NCBI RefSeq assembly: GCF_024502345.1
Contig: NZ_JALDNN010000001.1
DNA: 64,000 bases
Strand: one strand, 5' to 3'
Origin: Escherichia coli
GTDB lineage: Bacteria; Pseudomonadota; Gammaproteobacteria; Enterobacterales; Enterobacteriaceae
In this document: in pieces, positions 19,605-22,332 of the stretch
Numbering within the stretch: the stretch's first letter is position 1
How the letters are laid out: each line of letters begins with the position of its first letter
Notes under the pieces: model-generated
The model's input: only the letters and a program-made list of their open reading frames with translations
Databases searched by the model: none
Told to the model about the DNA's origin: nothing
Position numbers and translations under genes: made by a program

Positions 19605-20927
19605 TTACAACGACTGATGTCGCGTCTCATGGGTCAGCAGCAGGGCGATTAACGTCAAGCCAGCCATCGCCGCCAGATATAACCCCACCGCACCTAACCC
19701 GTAGTTAGTCTGCAACCAGGCTGCGATATACGGCGCAACGGAAGCCCCGAGAATCGACGCTACGTTGTAAGAGAATGATGCTCCGGTGTAACGCACTTCT
19801 GTTGGGAACAGCTCTGGTAACAGCGCGCCCATCGGCCCGAAGGTCAGCCCCATCAGACTTAACCCCAGCAGCAGGAAGGCAAAAACCAGAATCGGGTTGC
19901 CAGAACCGAGCAGCGGGTTAAAGGCGAACAGCGCGAACAGGATGATCAGCGTGGTGATAATTACCATGCTTTTACGGCGACCAAAGGCATCAGCCAGTAA
20001 TCCGGCGACTGGCACCATCACGCCAAAACCAATAACTGCCATCATCAGCATCCACAACACTTCGTTACGCGGCAGGCCAAGCCCAACTGGCGCGGCGGCG
20101 GTACTGAAGGTCATAGAGTAGACCGTCATGATGTAAAACAGCGTATAGGTTGCCAGCATAATGAACGTACCCAGTACGGTTACGCGAACATGTTTGGTTA
20201 GCAGCGTACCCAGCGGGATCTTCACCTGTTTTTTCGCTTTAGCGACTTTCTCAAACACCGGCGACTCATGCAGCGACACGCGAACATACAGGCCGATAAT
20301 GACCAACACCGCCGAGAAGATAAATGGCACACGCCAGCCCCAGCTCATAAACTGCTCGTCGGTCAGTAGCCAGGAAAGCAGCAAGAAAGTGCCGTTGGCA
20401 AAGAAGAAGCCAATCGGTGCGCCCAGCTGTGGGAAGGAGCCATACAGTGCACGTTTGCGCGGGGGGGCGTTTTCAGTCGCCAGCAGCGCCGCGCCGCCCC
20501 ATTCACCGCCTAAGCCCAGACCCTGACCAAATCGAGCCAGCGCCAGCAGCAGCGGGGCGAAAATACCAATCGTGGCATAGCCCGGCAGCAGACCAATCAC
20601 CACGGTCGAAATCCCCATCGTTAGCAACGAGGCGACCAGCGTCGCTTTACGCCCAACGCGATCGCCAAAATGACCAAATACGGCAGAGCCAATGGGGCGC
20701 GCGACGAAGGCGATGGCGAAGGTGGCGAGCGACTGTAGCGTTGCTGCCGTAGGATCGCCCTGCGGGAAGAAGATATGCGGAAACACAATAACGGCCGCAG
20801 TGGCGTAAATGTAAAAGTCGAAGAACTCAATGGCCGTGCCAATGAGAGAGGCGACAAGGACTTTATTACGCGAGTTGATCGGCGTGTATTCTTGCTCGTG
20901 GTCGAGTGTTGTGGCTGTTGCTTGCAT
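19605..20927 (-). CDS. yhjE: MFS transporter
   Basis: 440-aa 12-TM MFS-type sequence. Confidence 0.9.
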   Translation of the reverse strand: MQATATTLDHEQEYTPINSRNKVLVASLIGTAIEFFDFYIYATAAVIVFPHIFFPQGDPTAATLQSLATFAIAFVARPIGSAVFGHFGDRVGRKATLVASLLTMGISTVVIGLLPGYATIGIFAPLLLALARFGQGLGLGGEWGGAALLATENAPPRKRALYGSFPQLGAPIGFFFANGTFLLLSWLLTDEQFMSWGWRVPFIFSAVLVIIGLYVRVSLHESPVFEKVAKAKKQVKIPLGTLLTKHVRVTVLGTFIMLATYTLFYIMTVYSMTFSTAAAPVGLGLPRNEVLWMLMMAVIGFGVMVPVAGLLADAFGRRKSMVIITTLIILFALFAFNPLLGSGNPILVFAFLLLGLSLMGLTFGPMGALLPELFPTEVRYTGASFSYNVASILGASVAPYIAAWLQTNYGLGAVGLYLAAMAGLTLIALLLTHETRHQSL

Positions 20928-21242
20928 AATCTTTTCTTATTTTTTGGCTAACGAATAGCCATATTACGCACAGCAAAAGTGATATTTCAATGTGTAACAA
21001 ATCGCGGAAATGGTCAAAAACTAGGCAAAAAGGGGATAATGTTTAGGCCAGTGATTTTTCTTCTATGAAATGCTTCACATAATTTTATAAATGGTGGATA
21101 AAACTGGTTTCAGGTTAAATAAAAGTTACCAACTGGATTTATATGCTGGGGTTATGAGTTGGCATGAAATTGTTTGCTCCTGAAGAGATGTAGTTTCAGG
21201 TGGTTATGTGCATGTCATTGCCTGGTCTCTGGCCGGCTTGTA

Positions 21243-21283
21243 CCCCCTCACCCTAACCCTCTCCCCGGAGGGGCGAGGGGATC
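21243..21283. repeat. GC-rich imperfect palindrome (box C-like intergenic repeat)
   Basis: ccctcaccctaaccctctccccggaggggcgagggg. Confidence 0.35.
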
Positions 21284-21318
21284 GACCGTGCGTTTATCAG
21301 GCATTATAAACCAATGAA

Positions 21319-22332
21319 TTACCGCTGCGTTTTCCCCGGCATTCGCGGGTCGTCTTTATATTCGGCGGTGGCAATCCACGCCGCGCAAAACAGCGTCAAA
21401 CGGGCGAAGAAGTAGAAAAATGCCATCAGCCCCAGCACGGAACCAAATGCTGCACCAGAGGGGGATTTCATCAACGATGGCAGGGTGTAGGTCATCACGA
21501 TTTTAATCACTTCAAAACCAATAGCAGCCAGAAATGTTCCGCGAATCAGGGCTTTTTTGCGCGGACGGTGGCGCGGCAACCGCCAGAAGATCCAGAAGAA
21601 AAGCAGATAGTTGGCGAAGATGGAAATCGCCAGGCCAATCAACCGCCACGTCGGTTTCAGCCACTCAATGCTGTTCAGGTGCAGGGCGCTAATAATCATT
21701 TGCTGCGCCGAACCGGCAACCGAGGTGATCGAAAGCGTCACAATCAGCGCAATCAACAAACCAATCAGCGAAATAAAATCACGCAGATATTTTACCCAGA
21801 ACTTCTCCTGATCTTGCGGCGAGCGTTCCCAGACATCGCGCGACTGGGCGCGAATCGCTTCACGCAGGTTACCCATCCAGTTGATGCCGGAATAAAGCGC
21901 CACCGCCAGGCCGACAAGCCCTACAGTCGTACGCTGCTGAACGGCGGTGTTGATGGTGTTTTTCAACGTAGCGGCTAGCGTCGGATCGCTGATGTTTTGC
22001 AGAATTTTGTCGAAGATATCCTGTAGCAACATCGGATGGGAGGCCAGCACAAAGCCCCCTGCGGCAAACGACACCATCAAAATCGGGATCATCGACAAAA
22101 ATGAGAAATAGGTGATAGCCGCACCAAACTGGTTACCCAGCCGATCGTTAAAGCGTTCTGTCGCGCGAATAAGGTGCGCAATAATCGGTTGGCGTTGGAC
22201 TTTTTCGGCAGTGGTGGTGACGGTTTCCAGCGCCTGGCTAACTTTGCCGCCTTTCTCGCTATTATCCAACGGCTTAATCGGCTCGTGCTCCAGATCCTGA
22301 GTGGGACGTTTGATCTCGTTTTCCTGCGTCAT
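21319..22332 (-). CDS. yhjD: Inner membrane protein, YihY/virulence-factor BrkB family
   Basis: 337-aa polytopic membrane ORF. Confidence 0.88.
   Translation of the reverse strand: MTQENEIKRPTQDLEHEPIKPLDNSEKGGKVSQALETVTTTAEKVQRQPIIAHLIRATERFNDRLGNQFGAAITYFSFLSMIPILMVSFAAGGFVLASHPMLLQDIFDKILQNISDPTLAATLKNTINTAVQQRTTVGLVGLAVALYSGINWMGNLREAIRAQSRDVWERSPQDQEKFWVKYLRDFISLIGLLIALIVTLSITSVAGSAQQMIISALHLNSIEWLKPTWRLIGLAISIFANYLLFFWIFWRLPRHRPRKKALIRGTFLAAIGFEVIKIVMTYTLPSLMKSPSGAAFGSVLGLMAFFYFFARLTLFCAAWIATAEYKDDPRMPGKTQR

Follow-up and report, generated by a model that had tools for sequence, protein, structure and literature searches.

The DNA analysed here is a stretch of Escherichia coli of 64,000 nucleotides (the window), in which yhjD and yhjE follow one another on the minus strand. 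The space between the two genes carries what is almost certainly a complete BoxC repeat of type A, about 60 bp long (21232-21291, with the minus strand G-rich). The open reading frame list and the comparison with annotated genomes place this unit 26 nt past the yhjD stop codon and 304 nt ahead of the yhjE start. The complete genome closest to the window is that of E. coli GDSC2227PM, with 99.5% identity across the intergenic region. The features of the locus are the following:

19605-20927, minus strand: yhjE, the gene downstream of the BoxC unit.
21212-21323, no strand: allele-specific segment of 112 bp that carries the BoxC unit and is replaced by REP/BIME in K-12-type E. coli.
21232-21242, minus strand: left tail of the unit, GCCGGCTTGTA on the plus strand, the predicted outer-stem partner of the right tail.
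21243-21253, minus strand: distal G block GGGTGAGGGGG, the third strand of the published triplex or, alternatively, a partner of the C block via one G-T/G-U wobble.
21254-21256, minus strand: second loop, TTA, which defines type A / HPG1.
21257-21266, minus strand: proximal G block GGGGAGAGGG, which pairs with the C block at 9/10 positions with one G-A mismatch.
21267-21269, minus strand: first loop, TCC, read from the sequence.
21270-21280, minus strand: C block CCCCTCGCCCC, the pyrimidine arm of the hairpin, whose G is the conserved "mismatch" position.
21281-21291, minus strand: right tail, ATCGACCGTGC on the plus strand, the conserved end of the unit that faces the yhjD stop (family consensus GACCGaCCGnGC).
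21319-22332, minus strand: yhjD, the gene upstream of the BoxC unit, whose transcript would read the element in the G-rich sense.

Read 5' to 3' along the minus strand (the sense strand for yhjD), the unit consists of the GCACGGTCGAT tail, CCCCTCGCCCC, TCC, GGGGAGAGGG, TTA, GGGTGAGGGGG and the TACAAGCCGGC tail. GC content is 0.68-0.73 over 21220-21279 against 0.25-0.40 in the remaining intergenic DNA (20920-21200), bearing out the AT-rich surroundings between yhjE and yhjD described in the original prediction. That prediction had placed a GC-rich imperfect palindrome of 36-40 bp at 21243-21283. The palindrome is real: the quoted 36-mer, ccctcaccctaaccctctccccggaggggcgagggg, is found at 21245-21280, inside this interval, and 10-nt arms at 21244-21253 and 21271-21280 form an inverted repeat with 90% complementarity. 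A second pairing, read from the sequence, overlaps the first and joins 21257-21266 to 21270-21279 at 9/10 positions. The C block is able to pair with either G block, which gives two near-equivalent hairpins. The pairing arms of the predicted palindrome stand, but the anatomy is that of a three-block motif with two alternative hairpins rather than of a simple palindrome. The predicted size has to be revised as well, because in the paralogue alignment the conserved unit is longer, at ~58-60 bp (21232-21291). Both G blocks together make four G-tracts with 3-nt loops (GGGG-AGA-GGG-TTA-GGG-TGA-GGGGG), a canonical G-quadruplex motif. No inverted repeats larger than the core arms were found around the unit. 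Its right tail also follows the motif in Pseudomonas copies, and a flank resembling its left tail is present at the MG1655 alx-sstT and ygfF-gcvP copies.

The assignment to a family relies on exact pattern matches. At 21245-21279 on the minus strand, the three blocks fit without deviation the TMECO consensus CCCTCNCCC-N3-6-GGGNGAGGG-N3-GGGNGAGGG of Holder et al. (2015; PMC4666352), a pattern found 0 times in 100 shuffles. The 22-mer GGGAGAGGGTTAGGGTGAGGGG has a single match in the window (21244-21265, minus strand) with 0 mismatches and is likewise absent from 100 shuffles. With one match each for the 22-mer and the three-block pattern, the 64-kb window holds a single copy of the motif. Type A has TTA as its second loop and type B has CCG, and the commonest form in MG1655 is type A with one mismatch (PMC4666352). 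The window copy is type A with one mismatch and has the type A / HPG1 core GGGAGAGGG-TTA-GGGTGAGGG. The HPG1 21-mer GGGAGAGGGTTAGGGTGAGGG is present in it without any change, 3 nt downstream of the C-rich block; this 21-mer has 16 copies in MG1655, including those at tusA-zntA, cstA-ybdD and fabI-ycjD (Kaplan et al., 2016; PMC5100583).

The family itself has been described repeatedly since the 1990s. PMC2267715 and PMC4666352 credit BoxC to surveys of that decade, and the latter paper, which calls the TMECO motif "earlier described as BoxC", adds that Maher's group came upon it anew and named it the PIT element. The name BoxC is assigned here via these later papers, which equate BoxC, PIT and TMECO (PMC4666352, PMC2267715). 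In a systematic stem-loop survey, E. coli BoxC is a 50-56-bp family with 22-32 copies (PMC2267715). MG1655 has 23 TMECO copies, all intergenic and without strand bias, and the neighbours of TMECO form no functional gene class (PMC4666352). Neither yhjD nor yhjE was matched by name in a text search of the supplementary files of that paper, which reports 62 conserved TMECO loci, and the MG1655 record has no repeat feature annotated in the yhjD-yhjE region. The copy is absent from K-12-based lists because K-12 has REP there. The fabI-adjacent copy in the HPG1 list we take to be the site of the original box C description. In an Rfam scan of 20600-21700 (E<=10) the best overlapping hits reached 18.8 and 15.6 bits, where the gathering scores are 40 and 71. 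That the palindrome downstream of yhjD is a solo, complete type-A BoxC repeat, of the family also published as PIT, TMECO and HPG1, can be regarded as practically assured.

A copy search with a 76-nt query (21225-21300) was run against 5,426 complete E. coli genomes (E<=10). The query has places in 5,425 of them, between 2 and 35 per genome (median 19); the genome closest to the window has 12. BoxC places are chromosomal in 96,690 cases and on plasmids in 61. Among the matches listed, most paralogues span query positions 8-67 (window 21232-21291) with 85-92% identity, and in genomes without the yhjD copy the best match is a paralogue. Four paralogues, at tusA-zntA, glcC-yghO, trpS-yhfZ and cstA-ybdD, are all intergenic; these and the window copy align over ~55-60 bp, and the flanks beyond are unrelated. 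Since paralogues align at four other intergenic loci and the median is 19 places per genome, the motif is not unique but multi-copy in essentially every E. coli genome. The resemblance to box C-type repeats seen in the original prediction is thereby upheld, together with the exact TMECO/BoxC pattern and the HPG1 21-mer.

Copy number varies by lineage, from 3-5 places in several genomes, one of them from a record labelled ST131, to 16-31 in many. This spread agrees with the published strain-to-strain variation, with 1-2 copies in some strains, 19-29 in others and 6 in IAI39 and CE10 (PMC4666352); published K-12 counts are 16-32 (PMC5100583, PMC2267715, PMC4666352). Across 56 E. coli strains, motif loci are far more rearranged than control intergenic regions (PMC4666352). 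The tusA-zntA copy is present in nearly all E. coli, which makes this locus uninformative as a clean empty site. Some E. coli have extra insertions of ~160-167 bp or ~454 bp in the tusA-zntA intergenic region.

What occupies the slot downstream of yhjD in other strains? The window-MG1655 alignment reveals a REP pair (BIME) in MG1655 at exactly the position of the BoxC unit. From inside the last yhjD sense codon to window position 21212 the two alleles cannot be aligned and share scattered identities only; that codon (21322-21324) is CGG in the window and CCT in MG1655. The BoxC-type allele is found in ~600-622 of 5,424 E. coli genomes, including IAI39 and CE10, and the REP-type allele at the yhjD 3' flank in 4,802, with several sub-variants. 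Together, the two alleles cover essentially all E. coli genomes examined; P0029 has the K-12-type allele. The window copy has no REP consensus, and REP/BIME is the alternative allele in MG1655 and the 4,802 genomes, as expected from the original view that the element is not a REP. Two further differences touch this region. Near window position ~21190, just outside the allele segment, 20 bp (CGTCCCCAGAGCCTCTTCAG) are present in MG1655 and other strains with the REP allele but absent from the window allele. In BH100N, IS1397 (IS3-family) is inserted in the BIME downstream of yhjD, a third type of event in that slot.

REP-like palindromes, and no BoxC, are also present downstream of yhjD in Salmonella, in a Citrobacter amalonaticus-type YhjD contig and in one other enterobacterial contig, with sequence too diverged in these three outgroups for fixing the junctions. 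Because the outgroups have their own REP-like palindromes and no BoxC, the presence of BoxC is derived relative to them. YhjD ends in ...PGKTQR in the window, as in Salmonella and most Enterobacteriaceae, and in ...PGKTQP in K-12-type E. coli. At the last codon it is the K-12-type REP allele that is derived, since the BoxC allele keeps the ancestral Arg and the REP allele has Pro. The K-12-type REP segment begins inside that codon, and thus the repeat replacement altered the last residue of YhjD. Judging from these alignments, most E. coli, like the other Enterobacteriaceae compared here, appear to have a REP slot at this site.

The trpS-yhfZ locus independently repeats the REP/BoxC alternation of the yhjD 3' slot. 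Three alleles are found 3' of trpS: empty (EC958), REP/BIME (K1508) and BoxC (1,524 genomes, O145:H28 among them). About 10 nt separate the end of the BoxC tail from the trpS stop codon, and the BoxC allele differs by segment replacement and not by clean insertion, as at yhjD. For this reason E. coli offers no clean junction for a target-site duplication test. Of the 16 HPG1 copies in Table 1 of PMC5100583, 6 are between convergent genes and 1 is between divergent genes, and by our own count 8/9 of the tandem cases are nearer to the 3' end of the upstream gene. On these counts BoxC shares the 3'-flank niche of REP; PMC4666352, in disagreement with the count from this table, reports motifs more often upstream than downstream of ORFs.

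The distribution of the motif extends well past E. coli. The 2015 paper reports TMECO in 262 proteobacterial genomes (PMC4666352). Published TMECO counts reach 143 in Enterobacter asburiae LF7a and are zero in Salmonella. The exact 17-mer CCCCTCACCCTAACCCT, scanned in contigs representing one genome per species, gave at least 120 loci. Among the matches listed are three Pseudomonas genomes, with 33 loci in strain dw_612 alone; Boseaceae, Bradyrhizobium, Mesorhizobium and Methylovirgula; Ca. Contendobacter, Methylomagnum, Methylophaga and Sideroxyarcus; and Archangium, several Deltaproteobacteria and Thermodesulfobacteriota MAGs, and one Elusimicrobia MAG. At almost all listed loci the 17-mer is followed by CTCCC, then a loop, then GGGAGAGGG, which is the same architecture, and many of these lineages have the full TMECO pattern, including Myxococcota and Thermodesulfobacteriota. 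The motif is thus present outside Proteobacteria as well, in distant phyla. The full TMECO pattern was also seen on a 2,679-bp contig binned as a Methanomicrobiaceae MAG, which is either bin contamination or a real non-bacterial occurrence. In addition, the 17-mer is present in 107 IMG/VR viral/proviral stretches, with 56 full TMECO matches, many of which may be prophage calls with host flanks.

In several genomes the motif is part of a longer unit. In Pseudomonas sp. dw_612 it forms the left end of a 160-164-bp repeated unit, with ~196-293-bp versions and tandem arrays also present. The left end of the dw_612 unit is a type-A-like motif with the E. coli BoxC tail GACTGACCGAG, and at the right end a T-run comes before a type-B-like motif in inverted orientation. 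In Pseudomonas sp. EaCA-3 the units measure ~117-149 bp. Other lineages often have the motif in back-to-back pairs. MG1655 itself has an A...B unit of ~145 bp at lldD-trmL, laid out like the Pseudomonas units, and B-to-A back-to-back pairs with 18-29-nt spacers at hrpB-mrcB, alx-sstT and ygfF-gcvP. Around 29 paired units, taken from a Rhodospirillales contig and the two Pseudomonas genomes, no target-site duplication was recognisable. Where Pseudomonas loci have motif pairs 800-900 bp apart, no transposase was found between the motifs, and these intervals hold tandem short-unit arrays with spurious ORFs only.

It is possible that a single MITE-like element, spread across phyla and competing with REP 3' of genes, has BoxC type A as its left end and type B as its right end, in which case the window copy would be a solo left end. 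Because neither a transposase nor a target-site duplication was found, this proposal is put forward tentatively, and we consider it rather doubtful. A MITE has two terminal inverted repeats, and the window has one motif in 64 kb. The wider puzzle concerns the family: both the near-complete conservation of a ~35-nt motif across phyla and its mode of spread call for explanation. The authors of the TMECO study called its mechanism and origin unanswered (PMC4666352). The REP/BoxC alternation at two loci, the A/B unit ends and the non-proteobacterial occurrence could frame this question; none of them is decisive, and they concern the family rather than the yhjD copy.

For the copy at yhjD, the best explanation overall, to which we give a probability of roughly 0.9, is a BoxC copy that is a selfish or neutral repeat without a dedicated role for yhjD or yhjE. 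BoxC would be a structure-prone repeat of this kind, and not a dedicated yhjD/yhjE regulator, that takes the niche directly 3' of genes also used by REP/BIME. Its arrival at yhjD may have occurred by segment replacement or insertion, via recombination or a transposition-like process. Locally, it may well add a stable stem-loop to the 3' untranslated part of the yhjD transcript and raise rearrangement around the copy. We lean, with limited confidence, towards the yhjD copy having no locus-specific function. The very strong conservation of the motif across phyla argues against a purely neutral element and is hard to reconcile with one.

Folding of the unit differs between RNA and DNA. As RNA, the minus strand folds at -33.5 kcal/mol (z = -3.0 against shuffles) and the plus strand at -29.0 kcal/mol (z = -2.2). 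The minimum-energy RNA fold pairs the C block with the distal G block, while the tails pair as an outer stem. As DNA, the values are -11.2 kcal/mol for the minus and -9.9 kcal/mol for the plus strand, both with z ~0, and the hairpin is no stabler than that of shuffled sequences. Isolated single strands of the motif form a stable purine-motif intrastrand triplex by CD and NMR and a duplex with their complement, and in vivo DMS footprinting gave no support for a stable triplex (PMC4666352). By CD, the HPG2 (type B) oligonucleotide is a G-quadruplex when K+ is present, folds as a hairpin with Mg2+ or Li+ and pairs into a duplex with its complement (PMC5100583). According to PMC4666352, earlier work by Maher saw neither promoter nor terminator activity of PIT elements and no block to polymerase in vivo. 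In the window, a promoter and terminator scan found no promoter at the BoxC unit and no terminator-like site on either strand; there is no T-run, and the unit is therefore not an intrinsic terminator. A sigma-70-like promoter match lies at 20961-20990 on the minus strand (TTGAAA, 18-nt spacer, TAATAT), ~35-60 nt upstream of the yhjE start, in an intergenic part conserved from E. coli to Salmonella.

REPs stabilise mRNA 3' ends. The BoxC unit could similarly act as a 3' stem-loop of the yhjD mRNA, as an exonuclease barrier or terminator interchangeable with the REP of other strains. Its position 26 nt from the yhjD stop and its RNA fold (-33.5 kcal/mol, z = -3.0) are compatible with such a role, as are the alternation of BoxC and REP in the same 3' slot at two loci and the preference of family copies for 3' flanks. 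A terminator is contradicted by the lack of a T-run and by the PIT elements without terminator activity cited in PMC4666352, and family copies lie in both orientations relative to the upstream gene. We regard this role as unlikely, though not negligible.

More improbable still is a regulatory switch between G-quadruplex, hairpin and duplex, or a triplex, controlling yhjD termination or yhjE initiation. The motif is highly conserved, the yhjD-sense strand has the four G-tracts with 3-nt loops, and in vitro both the HPG2 (type B) G-quadruplex-hairpin switch (PMC5100583) and the triplex (PMC4666352) have been observed. However, ~89% of E. coli have no BoxC at yhjD, with REP instead, and the promoter-like site and start codon of yhjE lie ~240-300 nt downstream of the element. 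The family has neither strand bias nor a functional class of neighbours (PMC4666352), the duplex is preferred once the complementary strand is present (PMC5100583, PMC4666352), and the earlier tests, as PMC4666352 presents them, detected neither promoter nor terminator activity, nor a footprint in vivo.

A REP/BIME palindromic unit, which would likewise be intergenic, GC-rich and palindromic in a slot that holds REPs elsewhere, is refuted by the alignments and has a negligible probability, since the element matches the BoxC pattern instead and shares only scattered identities with the MG1655 REP pair at the same position. Equally negligible are the readings as a GC-rich palindrome arisen by chance or as a piece of the mechanical 47-codon ORF (21174-21317) that overlaps the element: the pattern occurs 0 times in 100 shuffles, many near-identical non-coding copies exist per genome in both orientations, no Rfam family comes near its gathering score, and copy number refutes chance.

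The annotation of the element as a BoxC/TMECO repeat, and not as a REP, terminator, small RNA or gene, can be regarded as settled, and it can be set beside the systems already described. In MITE-like arrangements, paired motifs of two Pseudomonas genomes bound repeated units of 117-293 bp as inverted ends; the window copy is one end without a partner. REP/BIME shares the niche directly 3' of genes and alternates with BoxC at yhjD and trpS, but is unrelated in sequence. REPs have an associated transposase family, RAYT; a RAYT-like partner is not known for BoxC, and none turned up here. HPG1 has the 21-mer that is identical in the window copy; the paper describing it proposes a regulatory role and does not use the name BoxC (PMC5100583). 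A locus-specific role of the type proposed for HPG1 is disfavoured here, because the presence of BoxC at yhjD varies by strain. PIT/TMECO elements share with the window copy the exact pattern, the TTA loop, the common single mismatch and a strain-hypervariable locus, the triplex being known for consensus oligonucleotides only. Finally, the window copy resembles the BoxC family in its ~56-60 bp length, its GC-rich imperfect palindrome, its strictly intergenic location and its dispersed, multi-copy nature, with nothing substantive to separate the two.
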